A stretch of DNA of 64,000 bases from positions 268,280 to 332,279 of the forward strand of contig JBBDXB010000006.1 in assembly GCA_040902515.1 (NCBI GenBank), written 5' to 3'. The notes under the pieces are model-generated. The model saw nothing but the letters and a program-made list of their open reading frames with translations, searched no databases and was not told the origin of the DNA. Source of the stretch: Patescibacteria group bacterium (lineage in GTDB: Bacteria; Patescibacteriota; SICC01). Within the stretch, counting starts at the first letter, position 1. Each line of letters opens with the position of its first letter. The translations under genes were made by a program, and so were the position numbers. Of the stretch, positions 2,740-20,334 are shown one piece after another.

Positions 2740-2790
2740 CGGATGCGGTTTCGGTTGGCCGTGCGGTGGTCATGGTGGAATCGAGAAAAA

Positions 2791-2826
2791 GTGAAGAAAT
2801 AAAAATACCCGTGCGTTTTGGGTATT
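2791..2826 (-). terminator. Rho-independent terminator downstream of the FNR-like gene
   Basis: Hairpin aataccc-gtgcgtttt-gggtatt at 2804-2826, followed on the minus strand by a T-rich run (ttttatttc). Confidence 0.5.
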
Positions 2827-2851
2827 CCTCATAAGTATACGGGACGGGGCC

Positions 2852-4005: not shown

Positions 4006-4122
4006 GCGGTCATTGTACCGCGGCGTGGCAAGGTATCCGTCCAATCATCCGACATGAGGGTGGTGGGTCGGGGGAGCAAAGGGCTATAAGCGCTTTGGGT
4101 TCCCCCGACCGGTCCACCATGA

Positions 4123-4545
4123 CTACCTCGGGTTGTACAGCACCGCTGTCTTGCGTGAGCACCGCGGGGGCTGGTTCTCGCCGGGGTGGTGCTCGTTGTT
4201 GAAGAGCGGCAGGGTCGGGACAGGTACGTCTCGTGTTCCGGCCGTCATGGAAGTCGTGCAATTGCCCATCTCGCGAAGTGTCATGCGATTCCTGCGCGAG
4301 GCAAGGGTCACGACCTCCACGCTGGTGCAGTCCCGACTGATCTGGTGGCTGGCCGCGACGGGGCGACCGGTGTGGATCACCAGCTTGCACGCCATCTTGC
4401 GCTTTGCGGGCTGGGCGGGCTGTACGCCGTCGAGCAACGGCGCCGCGGTCCGCTGGTCGTTGGCCGGCTCATCATCGATGGCGGGAGCCAGGACGATAAT
4501 CCAGAGTGCCACGCTAATGGCACCTGCGGCGATGTACTTGAGCAT
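4123..4545 (-). CDS. Small secreted hypothetical protein (signal peptide, 4 Cys)
   Basis: 140-aa ORF with GC3-rich codon usage, N-terminal hydrophobic signal-like segment (MLKYIAAGAISVALWIIVLAPA), and strong SD AAGGAGGGAG 4 nt upstream of the ATG. Confidence 0.5.
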   Translation of the reverse strand: MLKYIAAGAISVALWIIVLAPAIDDEPANDQRTAAPLLDGVQPAQPAKRKMACKLVIHTGRPVAASHQISRDCTSVEVVTLASRRNRMTLREMGNCTTSMTAGTRDVPVPTLPLFNNEHHPGENQPPRCSRKTAVLYNPR

Positions 4546-4689
4546 GTTGCTCCCTCCTTAGGGATTGCCAGGGTAGGTTCATGGTGGGTGGTTGGACGGA
4601 TTGCTAAGGAGCGGACAGGGGCGAATGGTATCATCAAATAATACCTTAGTCAAGGCATTATTTAGCAATTTCTCCAACGATCGGCAGGG

Positions 4690-5430
4690 TCAGAGCCCCA
4701 GCCCCTGCTCGAAGTCGGCGATCGGGTCGTACCAGCCTTGGTCGAGGATGAATGCCTGGAGATCGCGGTCAAGGCCGAGCAACACGCCGATGCCGACGAG
4801 CAGGAATAGCGCGCCGACCACCTTCCTGAACGTGCCGTGCGGGTCGGCCGCCCAGCCGAGCTTCCGTACCGCACCCTGGCCGGCGTAGGCCACGAGCAGC
4901 AACGCCCCGGCCAGACCGATGGCGTACGCGACCAGGTATGTGAATCCTTCCCCGAACGAGACCGGCAGGACCGCGGCGACGATCAGCGCGTAGGTCGGGC
5001 TGCAGCTGTTGAAGACCGGTCCGAGCGAAGCGCCGAGGAGCACGTCGCCGCCCACGCCTCCGCGCTGCTTGGCACCGGCCAGCGCCTGGCCGCTCCGGGC
5101 GGACAGGTTCAGCCGCGTGCTCAGCCGTTCCCACCATGCCGGATACAGGAAGTACGTGCCCAGCGCGATGATGATCATGCCGGACAACACCTGCCGGGCT
5201 TCCTGCGGCACCCCGAGCAGCCCGGTCGTCGCCCGGAGGAGCAATGTGAACACGATCACCGAGACCGCCAGGCTGGCGCTGATCACCAGCGGCCGGCGCC
5301 ATTCGCGCCCGGACCGTTCGTCGGCCCCGCGGACGATCGACCCGCCGACGATCACCGGCAGGAGCGGCAACACGCAAGGCGCCGCCACCGTCAGCACACC
5401 GGCGAGGAACGAAAGGACGAGCAGGGCCAT
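4690..5430 (-). CDS. ccdA: Cytochrome c-type biogenesis / thiol-disulfide transporter CcdA (DsbD family)
   Basis: Polytopic membrane protein with a CVLP motif in TM1 and a second conserved Cys (SCSP), as in the CcdA/DsbD-beta family. It lies 4 nt downstream of a membrane thioredoxin gene. Confidence 0.75.
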   Translation of the reverse strand: MALLVLSFLAGVLTVAAPCVLPLLPVIVGGSIVRGADERSGREWRRPLVISASLAVSVIVFTLLLRATTGLLGVPQEARQVLSGMIIIALGTYFLYPAWWERLSTRLNLSARSGQALAGAKQRGGVGGDVLLGASLGPVFNSCSPTYALIVAAVLPVSFGEGFTYLVAYAIGLAGALLLVAYAGQGAVRKLGWAADPHGTFRKVVGALFLLVGIGVLLGLDRDLQAFILDQGWYDPIADFEQGLGL

Positions 5431-5434
5431 CGCT

Positions 5435-5941
5435 TCAGTCCAGGAAGTTGCGCTTGACCGCCTCGAACGTCGGTTCGTCGTAGGCTACGTACACGTCGCC
5501 CTGCGGATCGCCGCTGCCGTCGACTTTCACGAAACTGGTCTGGATCCTGACCCCGTACTTCCGACGGAGATCCTGATGCGAATCGTAGTCCACCTTGATG
5601 ATCGTGTAACCGTCCGGGACTCCCTCTGACCGGATGCCTCGTTCAATCGAACGGCACTGCGGGCACCAGGGGGCGTGGAAGAAGAGGACGCGCTGGCCGG
5701 CGGCCTCGCCCAGGATTCCCTCACGGTAATCCACGTACGTGCCGGCGACTCTCTGTTCAGCAGACCGGTCCGCCGCTTGGACGGGAGCAGCCGTGGCCGT
5801 CGAAGACGCGCTTGGTGTACCCGTCGGTGTCGGCGAGGGTTCGGTTGCCGTCATGTCAGTATCGCCACGGGTCGCCACGAAGATCCCGGACCCCACCACG
5901 AGGATGGAGAACAGACCGATGATGATTGCCTTGGTGCTCAT
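5435..5941 (-). CDS. Membrane-anchored thioredoxin-like protein (ResA/TlpA-like)
   Basis: N-terminal TM anchor, Thr/Pro/Ser-rich linker, and thioredoxin fold with WCPQC active site. Operonic with ccdA. Confidence 0.75.
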   Translation of the reverse strand: MSTKAIIIGLFSILVVGSGIFVATRGDTDMTATEPSPTPTGTPSASSTATAAPVQAADRSAEQRVAGTYVDYREGILGEAAGQRVLFFHAPWCPQCRSIERGIRSEGVPDGYTIIKVDYDSHQDLRRKYGVRIQTSFVKVDGSGDPQGDVYVAYDEPTFEAVKRNFLD

Positions 5942-6028
5942 GCGCTTACCGCTGCAGGCTGACTATATCACTGCCCGCTACCGTTACGAAGCCTCGGCTG
6001 GCTGCTACAATAACCCGTTACATCGACC

Positions 6029-7069
6029 ATGAGGATACGCAGCGAAATCACGTTGGGCAGCATGGATTGGGCCGGACGGCCGGACCGTCCGGCTGACGAT
6101 GCGGAAATAGCGGCGGCGGATTGTCCGGCGCCCGAACTCAACCGTGACCTGTACAATCCGGAGAATGCCGAGCAGCTCGCCCTGATCCGACAACATTGCA
6201 TGGAACATCCGCAGGGCATCCTGTTGGACGTCTACCAAGCCGTCACCGAACTCGAACTAAAGCACCCGCCGGGAAGCCTGGAGGCCCAGCGACGGCACCT
6301 GAAGGGCCTTCGGGGCGAAGTGAAGGAATTGTCGGACGAACTGATGGAGGCCCTGATGAAACATCCGTACCACGCCATGGGGGAGGAGACGGAAGGTCCG
6401 GCCGATGCCTGGATCATGACCGTCCTCGACTACAACCGCCTTCGGTTCAACGACCTGGACGGCGAGCGGAAGAAACACATCCTCGGCGAGCTGGGCGACG
6501 TGCTGTGGTATACCTCACGCGTTGCCGCCGAGGCAGGCAGCAGCCTCTCGCGTTCGTTCGTGACGTTCCTGCGCGATGTGGAAGCCGGCAGGGTCAGGCA
6601 GAGTTACGATCAGGGCTTTGGTGGGACGATTGAAGAACGAGCCGGAGAAATCCTCGATGTCCGGCTGGTGCAGGATATCGCGTTAAGCCAGAAGAAAGCG
6701 TTCACCGTCCCGACGAACGAGGGAACGCCGGTCGAGACGCTGGCCACCATCGACAATATGCCGCACCGGCTGCTGGAGCGGATCTACGGCGACGAGCTGT
6801 ACGCACGGTCGGGCGGTGACGTCTGGGATGCCGAGCGACCGTACGAACACCTACCCCATACGGAAGCGACCGTCGGCAAGCTGGTTTGGTTCGTCGCCTA
6901 CACGTCGAGCTCGCTCCTGAACGCCGATTTCGCTACCGTCATGCGAACCAACCTGGAAAAGATCACGAAACGCAGCCAGCGCGGGACGATCTTCAGCAAG
7001 GAAGACCGTTCCGATGCCGACGAGGCCGAACTGCGGACAGCCCGCAATACCCGCATACCGATCGAGTAG
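6029..7069 (+). CDS. Tandem MazG-like nucleoside triphosphate pyrophosphohydrolase domain protein
   Basis: Two MazG-type motifs: KKHILGELGDVLWY...AAEAG and ATVGKLVWFVAY...NLEKITKR. The start is uncertain (alternative Met at 6062). Confidence 0.5.
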   Translation: MRIRSEITLGSMDWAGRPDRPADDAEIAAADCPAPELNRDLYNPENAEQLALIRQHCMEHPQGILLDVYQAVTELELKHPPGSLEAQRRHLKGLRGEVKELSDELMEALMKHPYHAMGEETEGPADAWIMTVLDYNRLRFNDLDGERKKHILGELGDVLWYTSRVAAEAGSSLSRSFVTFLRDVEAGRVRQSYDQGFGGTIEERAGEILDVRLVQDIALSQKKAFTVPTNEGTPVETLATIDNMPHRLLERIYGDELYARSGGDVWDAERPYEHLPHTEATVGKLVWFVAYTSSSLLNADFATVMRTNLEKITKRSQRGTIFSKEDRSDADEAELRTARNTRIPIE

Positions 7070-7095
7070 TTCCGGCTTCAACCACTTATTGATGC

Positions 7096-7124
7096 TTGAC
7101 ATTTTGCCTCAATAAAGGTATAAT
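7096..7124 (+). promoter_or_regulatory. Consensus sigma-70-type promoter (TTGACA-17-TATAAT)
   Basis: TTGACA at 7096-7101, 17-nt spacer, TATAAT at 7119-7124, in an AT-rich intergenic patch upstream of the ATG at 7147. Confidence 0.6.
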
Positions 7125-7146
7125 TCTTCAATTAATCCTTTTAGGC

Positions 7147-7965
7147 ATGAAAGCTCCTGACAGTCAGGGCCCCGATACACCCCTCTCGGAAACCGAGCAA
7201 TCTGAGCCATCGGCTATTGAGCGCTGGGAGGAACAATCATGGAGATCCGCCCGAGGAGCGGAGTTTACGGCAGTTGATTCGGGTCCCGGACATGACTTGG
7301 CCCGGAGCCTCGGTAACCACTACCGTGACTTGGCACACCGATTCGGTGCTATCGCGCGAGAAGGTGCCCCCGAAGATCGTGACAGCGCCCAGAATAGTTA
7401 CGAAGAAATATCGGGGGTCTCTCGAAGGTATCTTGCCGCCTCGGAGGCCGACGAGATACCGAGTGATCTGCAGGAAGAAATGGAACAGTATTGTGCGGAC
7501 CTAAACGAGGTACTCGACGGACTGGAGGAAGGAAAGTCCGAACGCTGGGATCGACCGGACAATCCGCGTCGCGAAGAAATGCGAAAATCGCTCATGGAAC
7601 TGGTTAGGATGCGCGACGCAAAGCGGAACGCCGCTCCCGAAAACCGATCCTCTGAGGTACCTGAAGATGAGAAGCGGACTCGCATGGCTGTAGCACATTC
7701 AGCGGATAGGATTAAGCATGACTTAATGCTTCGAATACCGCTCGATAGACTTGACTTACAGGCTGGCGACCCACGCTGGAAAACGCTCGCCGACGGTCTT
7801 GGCGAGATCCAGCGAGATCTTCGGAAGGACAGTCGATTGCCCGACGAGCGGAACCCTCAGTATGCCAAGCGTCTCAAGGAACTCCTGGGCAGTATGGCAC
7901 CGGATCAAGACTCCCGGAATGCTATCGACAAGGAGCTTGAGAGCGGTTCCAGGGGCCGCAAATAA
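7147..7965 (+). CDS. Acidic hypothetical protein (Glu/Asp/Arg-rich, no recognisable domain)
   Basis: The track ORF 7096..7965 overlaps the promoter, so the start is set to the first ATG after the -10 (MKAPDSQGPDT...). Codon usage is consistent with the genome. Confidence 0.5.
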   Translation: MKAPDSQGPDTPLSETEQSEPSAIERWEEQSWRSARGAEFTAVDSGPGHDLARSLGNHYRDLAHRFGAIAREGAPEDRDSAQNSYEEISGVSRRYLAASEADEIPSDLQEEMEQYCADLNEVLDGLEEGKSERWDRPDNPRREEMRKSLMELVRMRDAKRNAAPENRSSEVPEDEKRTRMAVAHSADRIKHDLMLRIPLDRLDLQAGDPRWKTLADGLGEIQRDLRKDSRLPDERNPQYAKRLKELLGSMAPDQDSRNAIDKELESGSRGRK

Positions 7966-8019
7966 TCCAACTAGGGTATCGCCCCTCGGGCATACGGGTC
8001 GCCTGAGCGTTTTATCTTG

Positions 8020-8106
8020 CGGAGAGGGAGGGATTCGAACCCCCGAGACCCTTGCGGGCCTGCCGGTTTTCAAGACCGGTGCCTTCAACCACTCGGCCAC
8101 CTCTCC
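8020..8106 (-). tRNA. tRNA-Ser (anticodon TGA)
   Basis: Minus-strand cloverleaf: acceptor GGAGAGG/CCTCTCC, anticodon stem CCGGT/ACCGG with loop CTTGAAA, 18-nt variable arm, T-loop TTCGAAT. 87 nt, no encoded CCA. Confidence 0.88.
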
Positions 8107-8167
8107 GTTTCTGACTGGTAACGTCCCCGTCCAGCTTAGCAGCCGGGCTGCTCCACTCGTCCAGAAC

Positions 8168-8196
8168 TTGACAGAAGGGTTATTTTGTGCTTTAAT
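8168..8196 (+). promoter_or_regulatory. Putative promoter (TTGACA-17-TTTAAT) for the 8249 membrane-protein gene
   Basis: TTGACA at 8168-8173, 17-nt spacer, TTTAAT at 8191-8196. Confidence 0.4.
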
Positions 8197-8248
8197 AGAG
8201 CGATTATCAACTTTCGCACCCGGCGAAGCAGTATAGTCAGGACAGTAC

Positions 8249-8803
8249 ATGTCAAAGCAGAACGACACTTCGGGTCAGCCCGCTCCGACGCAACAGGCGC
8301 CGGAGGAAACAAAAGATGCGCCCACGACCCAGGCGGACGCCGAACGGCCGCTGCTTGCCTGGCAGACCAGGGAATTCCAGGAGTTCGACCGGAACCGGCG
8401 CTGGTATGTCATCGCGCTGGTATTCGGAGCGGCCCTCGTGGCCGGTGCGCTCGTGCTGCAGCAGTGGCTCGCGGCGGCGGTCTTCGCGCTGGCGACCTAC
8501 GTAGTGGTCCGCCACGCCGACGACAAGCCGCGCCTGCTTTCGGTCGCGATCTCCAAGATCGGCGTGGAAATCGGCGGCACGTTCCATCCATACAGCGAAC
8601 TCAAGACGTTCTGGATCATCTACAAGCCACCGGTGAAGACCCTGACGCTCCAAAGCACCAGCCGGTTCCGCCCGCTGATCAAGGTGAATCTGGAGGACGT
8701 CGACCCGCTGGCTGTACAGGACACGCTCAAGGACCATCTCCCGGAGCAGCAGAAGCAGACCGAAGACTTCATCGACAAGTTCAGCCGGTGGATCCGGCTG
8801 TAG
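8249..8803 (+). CDS. Hypothetical membrane protein (two TM helices)
   Basis: 184-aa ORF with a hydrophilic N-terminus, then two hydrophobic segments (WYVIALVFGAALVAGALVL / WLAAAVFALATYVVV). Confidence 0.5.
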   Translation: MSKQNDTSGQPAPTQQAPEETKDAPTTQADAERPLLAWQTREFQEFDRNRRWYVIALVFGAALVAGALVLQQWLAAAVFALATYVVVRHADDKPRLLSVAISKIGVEIGGTFHPYSELKTFWIIYKPPVKTLTLQSTSRFRPLIKVNLEDVDPLAVQDTLKDHLPEQQKQTEDFIDKFSRWIRL

Positions 8804-8860
8804 TCGGACTACTTGGCCGCCGTGCATCCGGGCAAGGTACAATGGGACGCGTGTGCACAC

Positions 8861-8933
8861 GCGCCTGTAGCTCAGTGGATAGAGCGTCGGCTTGCGGAGC
8901 CGGAAGTCGCAGGTTCGAATCCTGCCAGGCGCG
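8861..8933 (+). tRNA. tRNA-Arg (anticodon read as GCG)
   Basis: 73-nt cloverleaf GCGCCTG...CAGGCGCG. Anticodon stem TCGGC/GCCGG with loop TTGCGGA (U33, then GCG). T-loop TTCGAAT. The backbone is nearly identical to the second Arg tRNA. Confidence 0.85.
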
Positions 8934-8962
8934 CATGAGCATACGCTCGAATACCAAACCGC

Positions 8963-9895
8963 ATGAATGAGATCCTGCTCTGGTCGCTGATCTTCCTCGT
9001 CTCGCTGGCGGTGATGCTCCGCGGCGCGGACTGGCTGCTGGTGAGCGGCGAACGGATCGGACGGGCCAAGGGGCTGTCGCCGTTCGTGATCGGCGTGCTG
9101 ATCGTCGGCATCGGGACGTCCCTCCCGGAACTGATCTCCAGCCTCGCGGCGGTCCTGCAGGGCGCCACCGAGATCGTTCCGGCCAACGCGATCGGATCGA
9201 ACATCACCAACATCCTGCTGGTCGTCGGACTCTCCGCGGTGGTCGCCCGGAAGCTCGAAGTCACCAAGAACCTCGTGGACCTGGAGCTGCCACTCCTCGC
9301 CATCGCCACGGCCATGGCCGCCGGTGCGATGGCGGACCGCTCGGTCAGCCAGGCGGAAGGCGCGTTCCTGGTCCTGGCGTTCGCCGTCTATGTCGCATAC
9401 ACGCTACTGTTCCGGGAGCACCCGAAAGCGACCGAAAAGCGACCGAAGACGAACGGCGGCACCGCGCTTAAGCTGATCGCCGGAGCGATCGCACTCGCAA
9501 TCGGCGCCAATTACATAATCGAGTCCGTGGTCAGGCTCGCGGACCTGTTCAACGTCAGTGCCGGGTTGATCACGCTGGCGGCCGTCGCACTCGGCACCTC
9601 GCTACCGGAGCTGACCGTGTCGTTAAAGGCCGCGTTCCGGGGCGACTCGGCGGTGGCGCTGGGGAACATCTTCGGCTCCAATGCGATCAACGCCCTGCTC
9701 GTGCTAGGCCTTCCGGCGCTCTTCACGGGATTGGCCGTCGACCAACAGACGTTCTCCCTGGCCTTGCCGGTCTTCGTGGTGGTCACGCTGCTGTTCATCC
9801 TGTCGGGACTGTCGCGGCGGATCCACATTTACGACGGCGGCCTCTACGTGCTGATCTACTGCTGGTTCATCGGCCGGCTGTTCGGACTGGTCTAG
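8963..9895 (+). CDS. Ca2+/Na+ antiporter (CaCA / YrbG family)
   Basis: Polytopic membrane protein with two alpha-repeat motifs: GTSLPELISS and GTSLPELTVS plus GSNAINALL. Confidence 0.8.
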   Translation: MNEILLWSLIFLVSLAVMLRGADWLLVSGERIGRAKGLSPFVIGVLIVGIGTSLPELISSLAAVLQGATEIVPANAIGSNITNILLVVGLSAVVARKLEVTKNLVDLELPLLAIATAMAAGAMADRSVSQAEGAFLVLAFAVYVAYTLLFREHPKATEKRPKTNGGTALKLIAGAIALAIGANYIIESVVRLADLFNVSAGLITLAAVALGTSLPELTVSLKAAFRGDSAVALGNIFGSNAINALLVLGLPALFTGLAVDQQTFSLALPVFVVVTLLFILSGLSRRIHIYDGGLYVLIYCWFIGRLFGLV

Positions 9896-9940
9896 GTCTA
9901 GCTGTTCGGACCGGCCCGAGGGCTTAATATAGAGGAGTAC

Positions 9941-10013
9941 GTCCTTGTAGCTCAGTGGATAGAGCGCTTGCCTCCGGAGCAAGAGGTCGCAGGTTCGAAT
10001 CCTGCCAAGGACG
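9941..10013 (+). tRNA. tRNA-Arg (anticodon CCG)
   Basis: 73-nt cloverleaf GTCCTTG...CAAGGACG. Anticodon stem CTTGC/GCAAG with loop CTCCGGA. T-loop TTCGAAT. Confidence 0.88.
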
Positions 10014-10039
10014 CATTGGGGCGACGCGCGGCGGTCCAT

Positions 10040-10059
10040 GGCTACAAGGCACCGTGGGA
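10040..10059. repeat. Copy 1 of a 20-nt direct repeat GGCTACAAGGCACCGTGGGA
   Basis: Exact 20-mer also found at 10730-10749, with an imperfectly similar 5' flank (gcgGCGGtCC / gcaGCGGcCC). It lies 27 nt downstream of tRNA-Arg(CCG). Confidence 0.7.
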
Positions 10060-10078
10060 ATGCTGATAACCGCTTCGG

Positions 10079-10107
10079 TTGACAAACTTACTGTGGTTGG
10101 TAGGATG
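10079..10107 (+). promoter_or_regulatory. Putative promoter TTGACA-16-TAGGAT upstream of a 33-codon ORF
   Basis: TTGACA at 10079-10084 and TAGGAT about 16 nt downstream. The downstream transcript carries SD AAGGAGGA before the ATG at 10200. Confidence 0.4.
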
Positions 10108-10199
10108 CTCTTGTCCTGAGTGACTGCAAGCCGTTTCACGGCTGAAGTACGAGCCGCCTGGCTTGTAGCTCATTCCCATCTCATCCAAGGAGGATCCAG

Positions 10200-10301
10200 A
10201 TGCAGAAGATCACCCGGCTCCGCGGCCACCCGGCCACCGAGCCCACTGAGCCCACCGCGTTCTGCGACCACCACGGCACCGGCGACCTGACGGGCACGTA
10301 G
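10200..10301 (+). CDS. Micro-ORF, 33 aa (MQKITRLRGHPATEPTEPTAFCDHHGTGDLTGT)
   Basis: ATG preceded by AAGGAGGA with 6-nt spacing and a promoter-like element upstream. Below the track's size cutoff. No homology inferable. Confidence 0.3.
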   Translation: MQKITRLRGHPATEPTEPTAFCDHHGTGDLTGT

Positions 10302-10545
10302 CCCGCCGCCGCGCCTCCACGTGTCACGTATGCCCCGAACAATCAGCTGCGTGACAGGATGAGATGAGGAAACTCAAGCAGAGAGTTGCATGACGACCCC
10401 CGTCGCCCACCAACTCTCTGCCTCATCCTGCCTTAAGAACGGGACTTTGTTATCATGCGAACATGATCAGCCGAAGCAATGCGACGTTCTTTTGCTTCGC
10501 TCCGCCCCGCGGTGGCTGATTAGAGGTAGTTACTAAGCACTAATC

Positions 10546-10567
10546 GCCACCGGCCGGTGGCTTTTTT
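10546..10567 (+). terminator. Intrinsic terminator/attenuator hairpin (GCCACCGGCCGGTGGC followed by T6)
   Basis: Perfect 16-nt GC palindrome at 10546-10561 followed by tttttt. An SD (AAAGGAGG) and the ATG at 10583 follow within 16 nt. An upstream segment, ccgcggtggc at about 10507-10516, could pair with the 5' arm as an antiterminator. Confidence 0.55.
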
Positions 10568-10582
10568 GATGAAAGGAGGAAC

Positions 10583-10759
10583 ATGTGTGAGCAAGAAAGG
10601 TCTCTCGAAGAGGTGCTGGGACCCGAGAGCGAATGCAGCTCCGAAAGCGGTGATGAAGAAACCTGCGCGGAAACCAAATCGGCGGAGCTTCCCGTGGAGT
10701 ATCCTGCCGTGCAGCGGCCCCGGACGCCCGGCTACAAGGCACCGTGGGACTATCGGTAG
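10583..10759 (+). CDS. Small acidic Cys-containing ORF, 58 aa (MCEQERSLEEVLGPESECSSESGDEETCAETKSAELPVEYPAVQRPRTPGYKAPWDYR)
   Basis: ATG 7 nt after SD AAAGGAGG. Its 3' end contains copy 2 of the 20-nt repeat. Stop lies 53 nt before tRNA-Ser(CGA). Confidence 0.35.
   Translation: MCEQERSLEEVLGPESECSSESGDEETCAETKSAELPVEYPAVQRPRTPGYKAPWDYR
10730..10749. repeat. Copy 2 of the 20-nt direct repeat GGCTACAAGGCACCGTGGGA
   Basis: Exact match to 10040-10059, 62 nt upstream of tRNA-Ser(CGA). In this copy the repeat encodes ...PGYKAPWD; copy 1 would encode ...HGYKAPWEC*. Confidence 0.7.
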
Positions 10760-10811
10760 CAGGAGGCTGCAGCACTTTGATACCGGCGGATTTACAATAG
10801 ACTGGAGATAC

Positions 10812-10898
10812 GGAGGAGTGCCGGAGCGGTCGAACGGGGCGGTCTCGAAAACCGTTAGGCCCGCAAGGGTCTCGGGGGTTCGAATCCCTCCTCCTCCG
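10812..10898 (+). tRNA. tRNA-Ser (anticodon CGA)
   Basis: 87-nt cloverleaf GGAGGAG...CTCCTCCG. Anticodon stem GCGGT/ACCGT with loop CTCGAAA. Long variable arm. The 3' 35 nt are identical to tRNA-Ser(TGA). Confidence 0.88.
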
Positions 10899-10954
10899 CA
10901 GGATAAAAGCGTCCAGGGCAACCCATGTGCTGTGGGATGGTAGGCTAATAGACC

Positions 10955-11563
10955 ATGAATAAGAAGCCTTCGATCGAAGGGGACCCGGCCACCTTCCCTG
11001 ATTCAACGGAAAGGGTTGATGAAGCAGGCGAATCGGTTACTGCGCTGGTGCCGAGAATCCTGGAAGGTCTGCAAATCACTCGATACCGCCTCAGGCGGTA
11101 TGTTCCGAAAACAGGTGATGAGTTTGATGAAGAAAAGGCGTTTAGCGACGTTTCCGGCTTCCGAGCTAATGTTGGAGCAATCGGACGAAGCCACGACCCT
11201 CGGGCCCTGGTATCTCTTTCGTCCAAGGTGGAGGTCGTGGGAGATACTCGGCATTTACCATTACTGGATTTCTCAAACACACGAATACCTGATTTGGATA
11301 TCTCTGATGTAGAAGAGGTGTTAATAGGGCTTGGTCAAAGGCGGGGTTTCATTCTTCATTCGGGAAGATGCTTCCATTACTACGGCCTTGATCTCCTGCG
11401 TGAGTCTGAATGGAGCGAATTGATGATGCAGTCCGCGGAACAGCCGGCGATAGGAGAACGGTACATTCAGCGTCAATTGTCTCGCGGCGCCTCCTACTTG
11501 CGGCAAAATACCGGCCCCACCAGACCCTGTTTACCTTATGTAGTTAAGGTATTGGAAGGCTGA
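10955..11563 (+). CDS. Hypothetical protein, compositionally atypical (lower GC)
   Basis: 202-aa ORF between two tRNA-Ser genes. GC is visibly lower (about 50%) than the surrounding ~63%, with A/T-ending codons. No recognisable motif. Confidence 0.5.
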   Translation: MNKKPSIEGDPATFPDSTERVDEAGESVTALVPRILEGLQITRYRLRRYVPKTGDEFDEEKAFSDVSGFRANVGAIGRSHDPRALVSLSSKVEVVGDTRHLPLLDFSNTRIPDLDISDVEEVLIGLGQRRGFILHSGRCFHYYGLDLLRESEWSELMMQSAEQPAIGERYIQRQLSRGASYLRQNTGPTRPCLPYVVKVLEG

Positions 11564-11726
11564 TAGGAGGAGCGGGCGGCCAAATTGCGTAATCTATCCA
11601 CCTGTATTCCAGAATCCGACCTCTCAGAAACCCCTTGGAAGCCTTACAATAAAACCCGTCGGGGGTTCCTGACCCGACTGCTCCGCAGGTATCCTTAAGG
11701 TGTTCTCTTTGGAGAACGCTTAACAC

Positions 11727-11816
11727 GGAGGGGTACCCAAGTGGCTTAAGGGGCGGGATTGCTAATCCTGTAGGTCGGCATTAGCCGGCGCGAGAGTTCG
11801 AATCTCTCCCCCTCCG
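11727..11816 (+). tRNA. tRNA-Ser (anticodon GCT)
   Basis: 90-nt cloverleaf GGAGGGG...CCCCTCCG. Anticodon stem CGGGA/TCCTG with loop TTGCTAA. 21-nt variable arm. T-loop TTCGAAT. Confidence 0.88.
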
Positions 11817-11840
11817 CAGTGTCTGGAGCATATGAAGCAA

Positions 11841-11870
11841 GGAACCCGCCGATCGGCGGGTTCCTTCGTT
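11841..11870. terminator. Hairpin terminator between tRNA-Ser(GCT) and the convergent secreted-protein gene
   Basis: ggaacccgcc-gatc-ggcgggttcc perfect stem followed by ttcgtt. Confidence 0.45.
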
Positions 11871-11887
11871 AGGCATCTCTGCGGTTC

Positions 11888-12490
11888 CTAGGTAATATCC
11901 CCGCTGCTGCCATCACTGGCGTTCACCCAGGTGCCGTGTTGGCCACCCCGATAAATCCATCCCCACCAGTCGTAGCTGAATCCGTACCCCGGTTCGAAGT
12001 ACTGGTCGATCCAGTTCACGTTGCCGGGACAGGAGCCGGCGATGGTGCAATCATGGTCGATCACGCCGACGTTGCCGCGAGTCGGCCAGGCGGGAACCGT
12101 AAGCAGGTCACCGCTGATGGTGGCGCGATAACCGCCCTGGAAGGTGCCGCCCTCATCACCGTCGAGCGGCTCGGTATTGCCCGGTGATTGCTGGCCCGCT
12201 TCAGCATCGAACTGACCCTGGTAGCTGACCACGGCGCAGTAAGTGCCGTCACCCTGATCCCACAGTTGGATCTGGCGGTTGTAGTCGATGAAGGCCCAGT
12301 AGCCGCCGAAACCGGAGTCGATCGAATTGACGACCTTGTGTGTGACATTCACGACGGGTTTGCCCTTCGTGTCACACTGTCCGGCACTGGTCTCAGGGCC
12401 CCAATTGAGCGTAGGCGGAGCTGCCAGAGCCGGCGTAGCCAGCAACACGAGCGCGATGACCGATATGAAGGAAATGACTGTTCTTATCAT
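11888..12490 (-). CDS. Secreted Trp/Gly/Tyr-rich hypothetical protein
   Basis: Signal peptide MIRTVISFISVIALVLLATPALA. Mature part rich in W/G/Y/D (GYGFSYDWWGWIYRGGQHGTW) with several Cys. Confidence 0.55.
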   Translation of the reverse strand: MIRTVISFISVIALVLLATPALAAPPTLNWGPETSAGQCDTKGKPVVNVTHKVVNSIDSGFGGYWAFIDYNRQIQLWDQGDGTYCAVVSYQGQFDAEAGQQSPGNTEPLDGDEGGTFQGGYRATISGDLLTVPAWPTRGNVGVIDHDCTIAGSCPGNVNWIDQYFEPGYGFSYDWWGWIYRGGQHGTWVNASDGSSGDIT

Positions 12491-12579
12491 GCGCAGTTCA
12501 CCTCCTTCCCCATGCAGTACGTCATGTAAGGCGGAGTATACCAGAACGTCCGCTGTGCTTGATATGGAACGGGCGAAAC

Positions 12580-12726
12580 TCAGGCTTCTTGCCGCACCTG
12601 ATGCGCCAGCAGGCCGATCAGTTCTTCCTCGGTATGCTCGCGTTCGTTGGCCGGCGTCTCATTGAACCGCCTGAGCTGCTCGATCGCGTCCTCGATCGGA
12701 TCGTACTGTTTCACGTAGAAGTTCAT
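12580..12726 (-). CDS. Small hypothetical protein, 48 aa (MNFYVKQYDPIEDAIEQLRRFNETPANEREHTEEELIGLLAHQVRQEA)
   Basis: Its ATG overlaps the TGA of the upstream 149-aa ORF (ATGA overlap), indicating translational coupling. The N-terminal part of track ORF 12580..12933 is in an Arg/Pro-rich frame and is not taken as real. Confidence 0.35.
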   Translation of the reverse strand: MNFYVKQYDPIEDAIEQLRRFNETPANEREHTEEELIGLLAHQVRQEA

Positions 12727-13172
12727 CGCGTGGCCAATCCGTTGACGATCCGGAAACGGAGCACCCTTGTCAGCGTGTCGTTGAACGCCGTCCGGTCGCG
12801 CACCAGCGTCGACGTCAGCAGGTCCTCCAAGCGGAGGATGTTCCCCGCGGCAGCATCGCGCAACCCGCGGTCGTCCGGCCGCAGGTTGAGCTCCAGGAGC
12901 TGCCGGTACGGTACGTCGGTCAGCTGGCTCCACGCCTCTTCCGACACCAGCGACTGCAGCCGCGGATACGTCTCGTAGACCGCCTGCAGTTCGTCCGTGA
13001 GCCGGAGCAGATCCACCAGGTGGCGCTTCACGAACGCGTCATCGACCCGGAACGGCGGGTCGATCCCGGCCCGGCACCGCTTGGAGCCGGTCTTGGCTCC
13101 ATTCGCCTTGGCTGATTTGGGGGTGATATCTCGCTTCATGGAAAACTCCATAGCTACCGAGAATAGGGACAA
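12723..13172 (-). CDS. Hypothetical protein, 149 aa
   Basis: ORF downstream of the sigma-factor gene on the same strand. No recognisable motif. Confidence 0.4.
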   Translation of the reverse strand: MSLFSVAMEFSMKRDITPKSAKANGAKTGSKRCRAGIDPPFRVDDAFVKRHLVDLLRLTDELQAVYETYPRLQSLVSEEAWSQLTDVPYRQLLELNLRPDDRGLRDAAAGNILRLEDLLTSTLVRDRTAFNDTLTRVLRFRIVNGLATR

Positions 13173-13189
13173 GAAACCCCTTTGTCAAG

Positions 13190-14215
13190 CTAATATTCGA
13201 CCGCTAGCTGTAATTTCCGGCGTGCCCGTTGCATGGCATTATCAACGGCCTTGTGATCGATCCCCAGCACTTCGCCGATTTCCGTATAGTTATGCCCGAC
13301 GTAATGCCCTATGATCACCCCCGACTCCACGTCGGTGAGGCGGGAGCGGGCTGCCCCGAATACATCCCTCACCAAACGCCTCTGTTCGATTATCTCATCC
13401 GGCTCCAGCACCTTCGAATCCGCGAGCACGTCCGACAAGGGTATTTCCTCCCCGTCCGAGTAGGTACCGACGGGTTGGCGGAACGACCTGGCCTCGTTGA
13501 CCGGCAAGTGCTTGTCCCGCGTGGCGGTCTTCACGGCGGTGATGACCTGACGATACATAGCCAGCTCGGCGAATGTCACGAAGCCCGCTTTTCCCGAACG
13601 CCTGTAGTCCCGAACGGCCTTCAACAGCCCGTAGCGGGCCTCCTGAGCGATGTCGTCCTTGCTGAGACCGGGGGCGAAATACGTATGTGCCAACCGGTCG
13701 ACAGATGCCTGCATCCGTTCGGCCAGTGCTTCGAACGCATCCTCGTTTCCTTCGAGCGCCCGCGTTACGAGCATCTCGTTACGCCGGTTGTCCGCAGAAA
13801 ACCCGGCGTCCGGTACGGCCGACTTTCCGGGAGGAGCCTGGGTGGCTTCCTGCCAATGGCGCTCCGCCAAGTCTGCCAGCCTCGACACGTACCCTTCCGC
13901 CGCACCGCTTTCCGCCGCTTCAAGAACCATGTTCGGAGCGGCTTCGAGCACTTCCTGCTTGCTGACCGTCTCCTTTTTCACATGGTAATAGCCGACGATC
14001 AGCGGGACGCCGATCGCCGTGCGTACCAATTCGTTCGCGGCTTCCGGACTGCCCGCCCGGTATTCCCGGAGCGCGGCCTCGATATCCTCGTGTTCCAGCG
14101 CACCGGTCATGGACTTCCTGAGGAAGTCGCCCAGCGCCTTGTCAAAGAACGGCGCTGCCTTCTCGGGAATGAAAACCGGCTCCCCCTGCTCGACTTGGTC
14201 TGCTTGTGCTTTCAT
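13190..14215 (-). CDS. Sigma-70 family RNA polymerase sigma factor (group-3-like) with ~110-aa N-terminal extension
   Basis: Region 2 (DIAQEARYGLLKAVRDYRRSGKAGFVTFAELAMYRQV) and region 4 HTH (YTEIGEVLGIDHKAVDNAMQRARRKLQ). Start set at MKAQADQ (14215). The track ORF extends to 14536 in a low-complexity frame. Confidence 0.65.
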   Translation of the reverse strand: MKAQADQVEQGEPVFIPEKAAPFFDKALGDFLRKSMTGALEHEDIEAALREYRAGSPEAANELVRTAIGVPLIVGYYHVKKETVSKQEVLEAAPNMVLEAAESGAAEGYVSRLADLAERHWQEATQAPPGKSAVPDAGFSADNRRNEMLVTRALEGNEDAFEALAERMQASVDRLAHTYFAPGLSKDDIAQEARYGLLKAVRDYRRSGKAGFVTFAELAMYRQVITAVKTATRDKHLPVNEARSFRQPVGTYSDGEEIPLSDVLADSKVLEPDEIIEQRRLVRDVFGAARSRLTDVESGVIIGHYVGHNYTEIGEVLGIDHKAVDNAMQRARRKLQLAVEY

Positions 14216-14318
14216 GATCCGTAACGGATGACTGGTTATTATGACACACCTTTCCCGGATGTTCAGGCGTGCCGGATCGTGCGCGTTTCGAACCCCTAAG
14301 CGGTACACTGGTAAGGTC

Positions 14319-15647
14319 ATGCGAGCCGAAACAGAGATCTTCCGGGCATACGATATCCGGGGAATCGTCCCGGACCAGCTGGACGAGGCCGGTGCCGAGC
14401 AGGTCGGTCGCGCCTTTGCGGCGTACTTGCAGCCGAAGCAGGTCGTGGTCGGTCGCGACGTCCGCACGACCGGAGCGGCATTCCAAGCGGCGGTCATCAA
14501 AGGCCTGACCGCTTCCGGCGTGGACGTGCTCGACATCGGCCGGGTCTCGACGGACCAGTACTACTTCGCCTGCAGCCGGCACGCCGCTCCCGGCATCATG
14601 GTCACCGCTTCGCACAATCCGCCCGAGTACAACGGCTTCAAGATGGTACGCAAGATGCCGGAACTGGTTCCCGTGAAGGAGTTCCGGTCATGGGTACTCG
14701 AGAAGCGGTACGAGGATGCCGCAAAGCCCGGCGCCGTCACGACCGAGGACACGCTGGACGCCTTCGTGGGCCGAATGCTGGAGCTCATTCCTCCGGCCCG
14801 GCTGAAACCGCTGAAAGTCGTGGTCGACACCTCGAGCGGCTCCCAGGGTGCCGCCTGGGAAAAACTTCGGGAACGTCTGCCGCTTGAGATCGTCCCGCTG
14901 TTCTGGGAGCCGGACGGAACCTTCCCCGGACATCCGAACGACGTGATCCAGCCGGAAGCCAAGGAGCCGCTGCGGAAGAAGGTGCTCGAAGAGAAAGCGG
15001 ACCTCGGCCTGATCTTCGACCCCGACGGCGACCGCTGCCTGGCGGTCGATGACGAAGGCCGGGACATTCCCGGCGACTACCTGACCGCGCTCCTCGCCAA
15101 GACGATGCTCAAGCACGCCCCCGCCAGTACGGTCGTATACGACATCCGAGCCAGCGACGCCGTCCCCGACGCCATCCGGGAAGCCGGCGGCACGCCGCTG
15201 GCCTGGAAGGTCGGGCATACGCACATCAAGCCGAAGATGATGGAACACGACGCCGTCTTCGGCGGCGAAGTCTCCGGTCACTTTTATTTCCGGGACTTCG
15301 GCTACGCCGACTGCGGCATCCTGGCCGGACTGGTCATCCTCGAGTACGTGAGCGGCCTCCCCGGTCCGCTCAGCGACGAACGGAAGCGCCTGGAGTCGAG
15401 CTACTCTCTGAGCGGTGAACTCAACTCGAAGGTCGCCGATGTGCCGGCCGTCCTGGCCCGGATCAAGGAACGGTACGCCGACGGCAAAATCGACGAGCTG
15501 GACGGCATCGCCGTCCGCTACCCCGACTGGCACTTCGTCGTGCGGCCGTCCAATACGGAGCCGGTGATCCGCCTGACGCTCGAAGCGGCATCCCGGAAGC
15601 TCATGGAGCGGAAGCGGGACGAGGTCCTTGCCCTGATCCGGCAATGA
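14319..15647 (+). CDS. Phosphomannomutase/phosphoglucomutase
   Basis: Active-site TASHNPPEYNGFK, Mg-binding FDPDGDR, and characteristic C-terminal domain. Start set at MRAETEIFRAYDIRG. Confidence 0.85.
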   Translation: MRAETEIFRAYDIRGIVPDQLDEAGAEQVGRAFAAYLQPKQVVVGRDVRTTGAAFQAAVIKGLTASGVDVLDIGRVSTDQYYFACSRHAAPGIMVTASHNPPEYNGFKMVRKMPELVPVKEFRSWVLEKRYEDAAKPGAVTTEDTLDAFVGRMLELIPPARLKPLKVVVDTSSGSQGAAWEKLRERLPLEIVPLFWEPDGTFPGHPNDVIQPEAKEPLRKKVLEEKADLGLIFDPDGDRCLAVDDEGRDIPGDYLTALLAKTMLKHAPASTVVYDIRASDAVPDAIREAGGTPLAWKVGHTHIKPKMMEHDAVFGGEVSGHFYFRDFGYADCGILAGLVILEYVSGLPGPLSDERKRLESSYSLSGELNSKVADVPAVLARIKERYADGKIDELDGIAVRYPDWHFVVRPSNTEPVIRLTLEAASRKLMERKRDEVLALIRQ

Positions 15648-15716
15648 ACGCCGGCGGCCTATCCCCGTCCGCACGGTACCTAGAAGCTCCCGCAGCTAAG
15701 CGCTAGGATAGAGTCT

Positions 15717-19354: not shown

Positions 19355-19373
19355 GCGTCCAGTGTAAGCTGAG

Positions 19374-20312: not shown

Positions 20313-20334
20313 GCTTGCCTGATAAAATGGGTGC

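Follow-up and report, generated by a model that had tools for sequence, protein, structure and literature searches.

Five tRNA genes lie close together in the DNA analyzed here, a stretch of 64 kb (the window) from a tiny soil bacterium of the high-GC Candidatus Saccharibacteria (Patescibacteria), and protein-coding genes of various kinds stand between them. Did the locus arrive as an accessory island, as the first-pass annotation proposed, or is it an old tRNA array that has repeatedly taken up other genes? The reading that we favor, with a probability of about 70%, is that an ancestral housekeeping tRNA array, together with the gene of a 184-aa membrane protein (ORF184), sits a few kilobases upstream of a phosphomannomutase (PMM) gene, and that its tRNA junctions act as a recurrent hotspot of insertion and replacement. 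Such a tRNA hotspot is of a known kind, newly documented in this little-studied group.

Conservation of the tRNA array

ARAGORN and Rfam agree on exactly five tRNA genes, three for Ser and two for Arg, all within 3.8 kb (Rfam scores 52.7-74.3 bits), and neither detects a further one elsewhere in the 64-kb window. They are tRNA-Ser(TGA) on the minus strand (8019-8106) and, on the plus strand, tRNA-Arg(GCG) (8861-8934), tRNA-Arg(CCG) (9941-10014), tRNA-Ser(CGA) (10812-10899), and tRNA-Ser(GCT) (11727-11817). This count agrees with the first-pass annotation, and the interleaved membrane gene, antiporter gene, micro-ORFs, repeat pair, and low-GC ORF that it listed could each be located in the sequence. 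A perfect 28-nt palindrome at 11839-11866, 3' of Ser(GCT), is probably a bidirectional terminator.

A genome scan with PMM as the query placed the window in Candidatus Saccharibacteria (identity of 98% to L001, 88% to L002, and 63% to L055). The five anticodons are clustered together in L001, L002, L055, L165, L167, and L170; L166, L168, L169, and L171 have incomplete or altered sets; and Arg(GCG) was found at 10/10 related loci that carry the cluster. Wherever a relative's contig covers the region, the genes of all five tRNAs and of the 184-aa protein lie near the same PMM gene. The tRNA genes are 98-100% identical between relatives, and nearly so where the flanks of the genomes have diverged to ~70-85%: Ser(TGA) is the same in the window, L001, and L002 and conserved in L165, L055, and L167, while Ser(CGA) is identical across the window, L001, L002, and L165. 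For Ser(GCT), the allele in the window is 98.9% identical to that of L002 but 91.4% to that of the otherwise closer L001, with compensatory changes in the stems.

ORF184, a two-TM protein gene (8249-8803, plus strand), shares this conservation. It has 34 homologs at E ≤ 1e-5, labeled Patescibacteria or "bacterium" where the source is named; wherever their context is available the gene adjoins these tRNAs, as it does in L001, L002, L055, and L165-L171, and it retains ~78% nucleotide identity even with distant relatives. The GC content of its region in a sliding profile (~0.63) is typical. Earlier taken for atypical cargo, ORF184 is a clade-specific core gene. Likewise, the view of the whole cluster as an accessory island has to be given up, since the five tRNAs and the 184-aa protein are conserved across this Saccharimonadales clade and, as judged from sequence comparison, seem to form its ancestral array.

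The array resembles bacterial tRNA arrays and operons in that five tRNAs, 4/5 of them co-oriented, lie in under 4 kb and that the isoacceptor content is conserved across the clade. The most compact form, that of L165, in which ORF184 and a 450-bp spacer are the sole interruptions of five tRNAs in 1.63 kb, looks like an ordinary tRNA operon. Unlike such operons, the array in the window is interrupted by protein-coding genes, and the interruptions vary among relatives.

Variable genes in the tRNA slots

The comparison of gene presence and absence across relatives, as had been proposed, revealed polymorphism. Relative to the closest relative, L001 (90-94% nucleotide identity over 11.9 kb shared), all structural differences fall within 8804-11845, that is, inside the array; farther out, 10 kb of flank is collinear with L055, one gene replacement excepted. 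The same slots are taken by unrelated one- or two-gene cargos in different relatives. The lineage-specific occupants of the window are a 289-aa protein gene at the Ser-TGA 3' end, a CaCA antiporter gene between the Arg tRNAs, a small acidic-peptide module after Arg-CCG, an archaeo-eukaryotic-primase-type (AEP-like) gene at the Ser-CGA 3' end, and two further genes toward PMM.

One such slot lies between Arg-GCG and Arg-CCG. The insertion in the window (8935-9940, plus strand) consists of the CaCA (Na_Ca_ex) antiporter gene (8963-9895; Pfam E 4.8e-54), flanked by the two Arg tRNAs exactly as first described, and a promoter-like TAATATAGA motif that immediately precedes Arg-CCG. The slot is empty in five genomes, measuring 1 nt in L002, 14 in L165, 22 in L055, 23 in L168, and 27 in L169, and five others are filled by three unrelated cargos: the antiporter in the window, L001 (96% amino acid identity), and L171 (85%), an MFS transporter and a cupin protein in L167, and an unrelated 489-aa membrane protein with a 104-aa ORF in L170. 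The empty spacer of L165, ATGAGCATCCGCAC, matches the left junction in the window, ATGAGCATACGC, and no duplication was seen at the antiporter junctions. Because its composition is host-like (GC 0.648, GC3 0.887) and it is common to L001 and the more divergent L171, the antiporter is not a recent foreign acquisition.

The spacer after Arg-CCG (10015-10811, plus strand) contains two small-gene modules and has no Rfam family match. In it lie a promoter (10079-10106), the micro-ORF ORF33 (10200-10301), conserved hairpins (10347-10432), and an attenuator-like leader with a terminator (10462-10567) upstream of a second micro-ORF, ORF58 (10583-10759); both micro-ORFs have strong Shine-Dalgarno sites. 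In L001 and L002, the leader-ORF58 module precedes the promoter-ORF33 module, the reverse of the order in the window, and L165 possesses the promoter/ORF33-type module alone. An exact 20-nt repeat occurs at 10040-10059 and 10730-10749, where copy 1 corresponds to the last ~20 nt of ORF58 and copy 2 lies within ORF58 itself. The pair is not an att pair but a trace of the local swap of the two modules, in which the end of ORF58 stayed behind.

The segment abutting the 3' end of Ser(TGA) (7068-8018, listed on the plus strand) carries a perfect sigma-70-type promoter (7096-7124, 12/12 consensus positions) and an acidic, low-GC ORF of 289 aa (7096-7965), whose true start is probably a later ATG and which matched nothing in Pfam, PHROG, or NCBIfam. 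The segment is present in L001 and absent from L002, in which a MazG-like stop codon abuts Ser(TGA) by 1 nt. The region delimited in the first-pass annotation began downstream of this ORF and so left out a member of the variable set.

Between Ser-CGA and Ser-GCT, three close relatives have three different cargos: an AEP-like gene in the window, a sigma70_r4-only ORF and an XRE HTH gene in L001, and a PQ-loop gene in L002. The slot of L165 is 32 nt without a gene. In the window it is filled by a low-GC cassette (10902-11688, plus strand) composed of a "GATAAAAGCGTCCAGGGCAACCC" trailer (10902-10924), the gene of a stand-alone 202-aa protein (10955-11563), and a 77-nt decayed tRNA-Ser 3'-like fragment (11612-11688) that ends in GACCCGACTGCTCCGCAG. 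The 202-aa protein scores well above the threshold of the Pfam AEP-like family PF24387 (E 9.6e-17; 61.5 bits, cut-off 27), and its AF2 model (pLDDT 91) is matched by Foldseek to the AEP domain of S-2L PrimPol (E 1.9e-5) and to the RepB' primase (E 6.4e-5, TM about 0.53), as well as to phage RepB-like and DUF927 primase-helicases. S-2L is a cyanophage, and RepB' belongs to plasmid RSF1010. The likeness to these AEP primases lies in the predicted fold (E 1.9e-5 to 1.3e-4, TM about 0.5) and in the conserved motif II, SGRxxH. The protein differs from them in standing alone, without a helicase or zinc-binding partner, and in its motif I, where DxD is reduced to a single Asp; a motif III Asp was looked for and not found, and no solved structure was matched at the sequence level. 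It is a minimal protein of predicted primase fold.

Against the genes of the window (mean GC 0.634, sd 0.041), only two ORFs are compositionally atypical, namely the AEP-like ORF (GC 0.512, GC3 0.502, z = -3.0, the window minimum) and the 289-aa ORF (GC 0.548, z = -2.1). The description of the cargo as compositionally odd is therefore apt for these two and not for the antiporter or the region of the 184-aa ORF.

Scars, routes, and competing explanations

Both foreign-GC cargo genes sit past a tRNA-Ser 3' end followed by a common GATAAAA trailer. The junction TCCGCA[AG]GATAAAA occurs twice in the window, at Ser-TGA as TCCGCAAGATAAAA (8010-8023, minus strand), from which the trailer runs from 8017 down to about 7996, and at Ser-CGA as TCCGCAGGATAAAA (10895-10908), where the AEP-like cassette is joined on its left to the tRNA 3' end CTCCGCAG (10894-10901). 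Two or more matches were obtained in 0/100 shuffles, and the junction is also found, with homologous trailers, in L001, L168, and L169. The Ser-TGA trailer is missing in L002 and L165, both of which also lack the 289-aa insert; despite the trailer, no distal repeat of that insert is recognizable. The 77-nt fragment that ends the AEP-like cassette scores 23 in local alignment with the tRNA-Ser genes of the window, where unrelated windows reach 26-29, and its support comes instead from homology to repeats in L169 (75% over 77 nt, E 5.6e-9). The fragment occurs four times in L169, where two copies with an exact repeat of 23 nt in common enclose different cargo of about 0.9 kb; in L170, 22 nt of the Arg-GCG 3' end are repeated without mismatch 134 nt downstream.

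Genomic islands associated with tRNAs are formed by tyrosine-integrase elements that insert at tRNA or tmRNA 3' ends and leave attL/attR repeats. The present locus resembles them in that cargo abuts tRNA 3' ends and is polymorphic in presence among close relatives, that two cargos are atypical in GC and one is a replication-type (primase-fold) gene, and that partial tRNA 3'-end repeats, clear in L169 and L170 and decayed in the window, bracket cargo. It differs in that the inserts are very small (about 0.7-1 kb, one gene each), that several tRNAs of one array are used, and that the antiporter shows neither repeats nor foreign composition. The integrase is also absent, as the first-pass annotation had noted: Pfam found no recombinase among the window ORFs at 967-20955, and precomputed Pfam lists contained none within ±9 kb of the locus in six relatives. 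Of the suggested integration hotspot, the slot polymorphism, the foreign GC of two cargos, and the att-like scars hold, whereas the cluster itself is ancestral.

For the route that moved each individual cargo, we infer two candidates. Small elements might have integrated site-specifically at tRNA 3' ends, at the core CTCCGCAG, which would place the GATAAAA trailer 3' of the tRNA and a tRNA-Ser-like remnant at the element's opposite end; given the absence of any integrase or recombinase in the regions searched, this route would lack its enzyme here, the recombinase having been lost or supplied in trans. Alternatively, homologous recombination anchored in the near-invariant tRNA genes might swap inter-tRNA segments between strains, which is plausible because experiments have shown Saccharibacteria to undergo natural transformation with homologous recombination (PMC10633639). 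From Ser-CGA through to the terminator, L001 departs from the window, with a divergent Ser-GCT allele (91%) and an AEP-like gene whose protein is 64% identical, while both flanks are 94-100% identical. In L001 no repeat accompanies this gene, which is found some 10 nt past Ser-GCT, on the opposite side of the tRNA from its counterpart in the window.

In chromosomal hotspots of horizontal gene transfer, conserved core genes flank the variable genes, and turnover occurs by homologous recombination in the flanks. The present array is similar in having different accessory genes per genome in the same anchored intervals, in the replacement of a whole segment, divergent tRNA allele included, between near-identical flanks in L001, and in the transformability of its host group. 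Its anchors, however, are tRNA genes of 74-91 nt rather than protein-coding core genes, and these candidate anchors would provide very short homology arms.

A rather unlikely alternative is that differential loss alone produced the pattern, with a larger, gene-rich ancestor in which the tRNAs were dispersed, gaps that are deletion scars, and no hotspot. Reductive evolution is typical of Patescibacteria, and several observations would suit this explanation: the host-like antiporter is common to the divergent L171, GuaA lies between ORF184 and Arg-GCG in L168-L171 and is absent from the clade of the window, the TAATATAGA motif before Arg-CCG is common to the window and L167 despite different cargo, and the 14-nt spacer of L165 could be a deletion product. 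Loss alone would, however, require an ancestor with three or more unrelated cargos in each of two slots, and it does not sit well with the clearly foreign GC of two cargos, with AEP-like genes only 64% identical on opposite sides of Ser-GCT between flanks of 94-100% identity, or with the duplicated tRNA 3' ends in L169 and L170. In the hotspot reading, whether each event was a gain or a loss is judged by parsimony among about ten genomes, with no species tree.

It is highly improbable that contigs were joined across near-identical tRNAs of co-occurring strains in assembly or binning, mimicking cargo swaps. All compared genomes are metagenome assemblies (MAGs or metagenome contigs), that of L002 is labeled cov_0.9, and the tRNAs are as similar between relatives as described above; yet the arrangement in the window is reproduced independently in L001, another assembly, the order Arg-GCG, antiporter, Arg-CCG recurs in L171 from a third sample, the tRNAs, at 74-91 nt, fall short of the last k-mer size that the "k141" contig names imply, several junctions are found in unique sequence outside tRNAs, and both flanks are collinear with relatives. 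Also very doubtful is a functional operon in which the antiporter, AEP-like protein, and micro-ORFs are co-expressed or functionally coupled with the tRNAs (the AEP-fold protein, for example, might act on tRNA): the antiporter, whose start lies 28 nt past Arg-GCG, shows neither a Shine-Dalgarno site nor its own promoter, suggesting co-transcription, and a few AEP-like homologs adjoin tRNAs (at 31 nt in L116, 256 nt in L087, and 279 nt in L130), but a tRNA lies within 1 kb at only about four of 80 loci of the family, near chance expectation, no neighbor is conserved (at best 7/40 loci), and each cargo is missing in at least one close relative in which the tRNAs are retained.

Variation beyond the array

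Downstream of Ser-GCT, a gene on the minus strand (11888-12490) encodes a variable 200-aa protein with a hydrophobic, signal-peptide-like N terminus. It is present in L001, its position is occupied by a threonine-synthase-like gene and a 196-aa ORF in L002, and L165 has nothing there. Beyond it, between a conserved 149-aa gene (12723-13172) and PMM, a SigH-like gene of the sigma-70 family (13190-14212, minus strand) forms a lineage-specific insertion; its ORF was called up to 14536, and the true start is probably downstream of that call. The product hits NCBIfam SigH with E 6e-41, below the family cut-off, and the sigma70-ECF superfamily with 59.4 bits (cut-off 42.9). Positions 13193-14302 have no match in L002 or L055, and L165 is without a gene there. 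This insertion touches no tRNA, nor does a variable CcdA/thioredoxin pair at 4013-5953, so that gene turnover is not confined to the tRNA junctions.

The tRNA array and its conservation

Exactly five tRNA genes were detected by ARAGORN in the 64-kb window, all of them within 8019-11817, and each is supported by Rfam at 52.7-74.3 bits against a threshold of 29. tRNA-Ser(TGA) (8019-8106) lies on the minus strand and is followed on the plus strand by tRNA-Arg(GCG) (8861-8934), tRNA-Arg(CCG), tRNA-Ser(CGA) (10812-10899) and, as the last of the five, tRNA-Ser(GCT). The cluster of three serine and two arginine tRNAs described in the first-pass annotation is therefore real, and the features interleaved with it are all there: a gene for a 184-aa protein with two transmembrane segments (ORF184, 8249-8803), an antiporter gene (8963-9895) situated exactly between the two arginine tRNAs, two micro-ORFs, a repeat pair, and a low-GC ORF. 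Rfam searches of the whole window at gathering thresholds, and of 7900-12000 in E-value mode, yielded nothing beyond the five tRNAs; sub-threshold matches to sX4 and plastid families were discarded because they merely overlie the tRNAs.

Comparators were collected with the phosphomannomutase gene just beyond the array (PMM, 14241-15647) as the query against one genome per species, and the best matches came from MAGs of Candidatus Saccharibacteria or Patescibacteria (L001, 98% amino acid identity; L002, 88%; L055, 63%; L003, 60%; L004, 57%). Same-clade contigs L165-L171 were reached via homologs of the ORF184 protein and the antiporter, and the comparison set comprised ten related loci. All five anticodons are clustered near ORF184 and PMM in L001, L002, L055, L165, L167, and L170; L168 has the five with Ser-GCT duplicated, L169 has four of them, and the arrays of L166 and L171 are interrupted by contig ends. 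The most compact array is that of L165, where the five tRNAs fall within 1.63 kb and only 14 nt separate Arg-GCG from Arg-CCG. The tRNAs are nearly invariant between genomes, with Ser-CGA identical in four, and ORF184 adjoins tRNAs in every comparator with about 78% nucleotide identity even in distant members, which identifies it as a clade-specific core gene. A shared set of tRNAs that stays clustered in a neighborhood kept across relatives is what defines a housekeeping tRNA array, and such an array is found here. The cluster as a whole is thus not the accessory island that had been proposed, since the same tRNAs and ORF184 are conserved across the clade.

Two features of the tRNAs deserve mention in their own right. 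An inverted repeat of 103 nt with 83% complementarity, formed by Ser-TGA and Ser-CGA, encloses ORF184 and both arginine tRNAs, and the orientation of Ser-TGA is reversed in L055, L166, L167, and L170, which suggests a past inversion between the tRNA-Ser paralogs. In addition, the GCG anticodon of tRNA-Arg also occurs in L001, L002, L055, L165, and L167-L171 and is kept in all ten relatives, while the only three Arg(ACG) genes among the fetched loci (L047, L049, and L058) are not from Patescibacteria. To our knowledge, almost all bacteria use tRNA-Arg with ACG, deaminated by TadA to ICG, rather than GCG. The distribution hints that CGY codons might be decoded without inosine in the lineage of the window.

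Turnover of the slots between tRNAs

What differs among the relatives is the gene content of the slots, i.e., the gaps between neighboring tRNA genes, as the comparison of presence and absence across relatives called for by the first-pass annotation revealed. Support for the idea of an integration hotspot is limited to the slots and does not extend to the entire cluster. Between the window and its closest relative L001, which share 90-94% nucleotide identity, every structural difference in 11.9 kb falls within 8804-11845, and over the following 10 kb even L055 is collinear, save for one gene replacement. The variable genes away from the tRNAs are a SigH-like sigma gene, which is missing from L002, L055, and L165, and a CcdA/thioredoxin pair (4013-5953). 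As annotated, the SigH-like ORF (13190-14536, minus strand) begins about 250 codons before its sigma domains and would run into the start of PMM on the opposite strand; translation probably starts at a more downstream position.

The slot between Arg-GCG and Arg-CCG is 1 nt long in L002, 14 nt in L165, 22 nt in L055, 23 nt in L168, and 27 nt in L169. It is filled by the antiporter in the window, L001 (96% amino acid identity), and L171 (85%), by an MFS transporter and a cupin protein in L167, and by a 489-aa membrane protein and a 104-aa ORF in L170. The empty spacer of L165, ATGAGCATCCGCAC, matches the left antiporter junction of the window, ATGAGCATACGC, and the antiporter segment therefore sits precisely within that spacer. 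In the slot between Ser-CGA and Ser-GCT, the window has a 202-aa primase-fold ORF (AEP-like ORF, 10955-11563), L001 a sigma70-region-4-only ORF with an XRE-type HTH gene, L002 a PQ-loop (SemiSWEET-like) ORF, and L165 no gene but a spacer of about 30-32 nt, whose alignment with the 38-nt flank of the AEP-like cassette in the window is short and highly diverged. L001 has an additional ORF between ORF184 and Arg-GCG. The segment 7068-8017, which carries a low-GC ORF of 289 aa (7096-7965), is missing from L002, where the stop codon of the MazG-like gene touches the tRNA, and in place of the 200-aa ORF downstream of Ser-GCT, L002 has a threonine-synthase-like gene and a 196-aa ORF. In L168, two full-length tRNA-Ser(GCT) genes of different alleles (3460-3550 and 5535-5625; 94.9% and 91.9% identical to that of the window) bracket about 2 kb with three small genes, a stretch that looks like an integrated element bringing its own tRNA copy.

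The cargo had also been described as compositionally odd. Against a mean GC of 0.634 (sd 0.041) for the genes of the window, the AEP-like ORF is the lowest (GC 0.512, GC3 0.502, z = -3.0) and the 289-aa ORF the second lowest (0.548, z = -2.1), while the antiporter (GC 0.648, GC3 0.887) and the ORF184 region (about 0.63) are typical. The atypical composition of a classical tRNA-linked island is therefore confined to two genes, and the description fits these but neither the antiporter nor the ORF184 region.

Junctions at tRNA 3' ends

Both low-GC segments start with a homologous trailer directly after the 3' end of a tRNA-Ser, where the tRNA sequence ...CTCCGCA is continued by AGATAAAACGCTCAGGCGACCC at Ser-TGA and by GGATAAAAGCGTCCAGGGCAACCC at Ser-CGA. 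The junction pattern TCCGCA[AG]GATAAAA has two matches in the window, at least two being found in 0 of 100 shuffles, and it recurs in L001, in L168, and three times in L169, with trailers that align. The Ser-TGA trailer is missing in L002 and L165, both of which have no insert, and no trailer follows Ser-CGA in L001, L002, or L165. The AEP-like cassette is closed by 77 nt (11612-11688) that look like a tRNA-Ser from the anticodon to the 3' end and terminate in CTGCTCCGCAG; this decayed fragment has only CGGGGGTTC and CTCCGCAG in common with Ser-CGA, and its similarity score to the window's own tRNA-Ser genes is not statistically exceptional. It aligns with a repeat of L169 at 75% identity over 77 nt (E 5.6e-9). 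L169 has four copies of the fragment, decayed to different degrees, two of which have 23 exact nt in common and are separated by about 0.9 kb of unrelated cargo, and one of which runs straight into the trailer. This fragment-core-trailer arrangement looks like an attP-like configuration, such as is expected where tandem elements join. In L170, the 3' end of Arg-GCG and its flank are exactly duplicated (22 nt) 134 nt downstream. No repeat was detected at the far end of the 289-aa insert, and a 16-nt pattern derived from the fragment occurs on 23 IMG/VR contigs, which is about the chance level estimated for 16 specified bases in a collection of that size; only two of the 23 matched, over the same 18 nt and no further. 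The cargo between the tRNA-Ser-like repeats of L169 encodes a 65-aa Cys-rich protein (404-601; ...GDCCVFC...) and a 115-aa membrane protein (756-1103), and may be a small metal-handling module.

Read from sequence, these scars resemble the traces that integration at the 3' end of a tRNA classically leaves. As in a classical tRNA-linked island, the 289-aa segment and the AEP-like cassette are inserted right at the 3' ends of Ser-TGA and Ser-CGA, respectively, and presence/absence polymorphism is seen among close relatives; in contrast to such an island, the elements contain no integrase or recombinase. The remark of the first-pass annotation that no integrase remains is borne out by the Pfam matches of the window ORFs in 967-20955, which include no recombinase family, and by the called genes within 9 kb on either side of the locus in six relatives (L165-L170), among which no recombinase was found. 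The mechanism behind the turnover of the slots is in part an inference.

One possibility is homologous replacement. Across the entire stretch from Ser-CGA to the terminator hairpin, L001 has other genes than the window, and its Ser-GCT allele is 91.4% identical to that of the window, with compensatory changes in the stem, while L002, though more distant, has an allele with 98.9% identity. The AEP-like gene of L001 is situated on the opposite side of Ser-GCT, with 69% nucleotide and 64% protein identity to that of the window, and the sequences bordering the replaced stretch are 100% and 94% identical to the window. Because DNA that Saccharibacteria import via the com system is incorporated through homologous recombination (PMC10633639), an exchange anchored in the invariant tRNAs is plausible, although the homology arms would be very short. 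Another possibility, which we regard as unlikely but testable, is that the scars belong to an undescribed family of miniature cassettes without an integrase of their own, whose two ends would consist of the tRNA-Ser-like fragments (about 77 nt) together with the core CTCCGCAG and the "GATAAAA..." trailer. Such cassettes would carry one to three genes each, including cargo such as a stand-alone AEP-fold protein, would be mobilized in trans, and would target tRNA-Ser 3' ends in Saccharimonadales; tandem stacking would be possible, as the contiguous, attP-like fragment-core-trailer junction of L169 may indicate. An integron-type array, with IntI, attI, and attC-bounded cassettes, does not fit, since no integrase was found in 967-20955 of the window or within 9 kb of the locus in L165-L170 and the repeats stem from tRNA 3' ends rather than from attC-like inverted repeats.

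The principle of tRNA-linked hotspots is textbook knowledge, and the gain from this locus, which adds an instance of a well-known phenomenon from a phylum that has been little studied, is therefore descriptive rather than conceptual. Patescibacteria have tiny genomes, are mostly known from metagenomes, and are poorly charted with respect to mobile elements and gene flow; our literature search found no earlier description of tRNA-linked islands in Saccharibacteria. The locus provides a concrete, alignable case of accessory-gene entry into such a genome, and the TCCGCA[AG]GATAAAA junction together with the tRNA-Ser-like fragment can serve as signatures for locating more sites and, ideally, their recombinase. 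The miniature cassette family targeting tRNA-Ser would be a further, hypothetical addition.

Cargo genes and small transcription units

The product of the AEP-like ORF matches Pfam PF24387 at 61.5 bits (cut-off 27), as does its L001 homolog at 55.3 bits. Its AF2 model (pLDDT 91) has the catalytic fold of the AEP superfamily: the best Foldseek matches were the AEP domain of cyanophage S-2L PrimPol (6zp9_A) and RepB' of plasmid RSF1010 (3h20/3h25), with a probability of 1.00 each, and E-values of 1.9e-5 to 1.3e-4 and TM of about 0.5 for these catalytic domains, and the BFVD matches were phage RepB-like and DUF927 primase-helicases, in each case through the N-terminal domain. When PDB sequences were searched with a profile of the family alignment, no match reached significance. 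Across 35 family members, motif II (sGxGxH) is represented by SGRCFHYYG, in which S136 and G137 are conserved and H141 is invariant. Motif I, as assigned from the alignment and secondary structure without structural superposition, differs from the canonical DxD/E with its two acidic residues in that it reads H-x-P-x-x-D-F, where D105 alone is conserved and the +2 position is variable, and no motif III Asp was found in the family alignment. H100, D105, H141, and R183 vary little or not at all. Primase or polymerase activity of the protein is uncertain.

An exhaustive profile-free search yielded 546 cluster representatives of PF24387-type relatives, mostly 180-260 aa in length, with relatives encoded on 223 metagenome stretches. 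A viral family was rejected, as no relative was found in IMG/VR, and so were a general linkage to tRNAs, which lie within 1 kb in about 4 of 80 loci, and a conserved partner, the best neighbor cluster occurring in 7 of 40. Searches of the cargo ORFs against PHROGs and NCBIfam returned nothing, and the host carries an ordinary DnaG primase. We read the AEP-like gene as mobile cargo of replication-gene ancestry and not as a part of the tRNA system. No earlier description of PF24387 was found in the literature. The locus marks a widespread, uncharacterized family of stand-alone primase-fold proteins as mobile cargo.

The antiporter belongs to the CaCA family, with Pfam PF01699 (Na_Ca_ex) matched in two stretches (E 4.8e-54) corresponding to the two Na_Ca_ex repeats. 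It has 4094 homologs at E <= 1e-20, and those named by a source are from Patescibacteria. There is no signal of recent horizontal transfer, as the antiporter and ORF184 have diverged alike from L171 (81.8% and 78.8% nucleotide identity, respectively). The start codon is placed 28 nt past tRNA-Arg(GCG), and neither a Shine-Dalgarno sequence nor a promoter is visible in 8935-8962, which suggests that the antiporter might be co-transcribed with the tRNA and its translation started without a Shine-Dalgarno sequence. The nearby micro-ORFs, by contrast, have textbook AAGGAGG sites.

These micro-ORFs, ORF33 (10200-10301) and ORF58 (10583-10759), both with strong Shine-Dalgarno sequences, lie between Arg-CCG and Ser-CGA, and an exact 20-nt repeat has copies at 10040 and 10730. 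In L001 and L002 the order is Arg-CCG, a leader with a terminator, an acidic ORF with the C terminus GYK[AS]PW[DE]YR, a promoter, ORF33, hairpins, and Ser-CGA. The window has the two modules in swapped order, and the repeat pair exists because the last ~20 nt of the acidic ORF stayed behind at the old place; it is a product of local rearrangement, and its interpretation as an att pair was rejected. L165 has the promoter/ORF33-type module alone, in which the 5' and 3' ends are conserved and the central ORF is not. Within 10079-10440, a unit of about 330 nt is driven by the promoter TTGACA-16-TAGGAT, which is strongly conserved. The window, L001, L002, and L165 all keep the 5' end and the 3' hairpins of this unit; its 33-codon ORF is not conserved in L165. 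A long-range helix between the 5' and 3' ends, with one covarying pair, is predicted by RNAalifold, and no Rfam family matches the unit, which is a candidate for a structured RNA or a small-protein mRNA. Upstream of the acidic 58-aa ORF, 10462-10567 forms an attenuator-like leader, conserved in L001 and L002, with an intrinsic terminator (10546-10561) and U-run, a competing antiterminator helix (GGUGGCUGAUU/AAUCGCCACC), and a fold z-score of -2.6. The small acidic proteins (10583-10759 in the window, 5311-5499 in L001) show little conservation outside the C-terminal motif, which is out of frame in L002, possibly owing to a sequencing error, since that contig is labeled cov_0.9.
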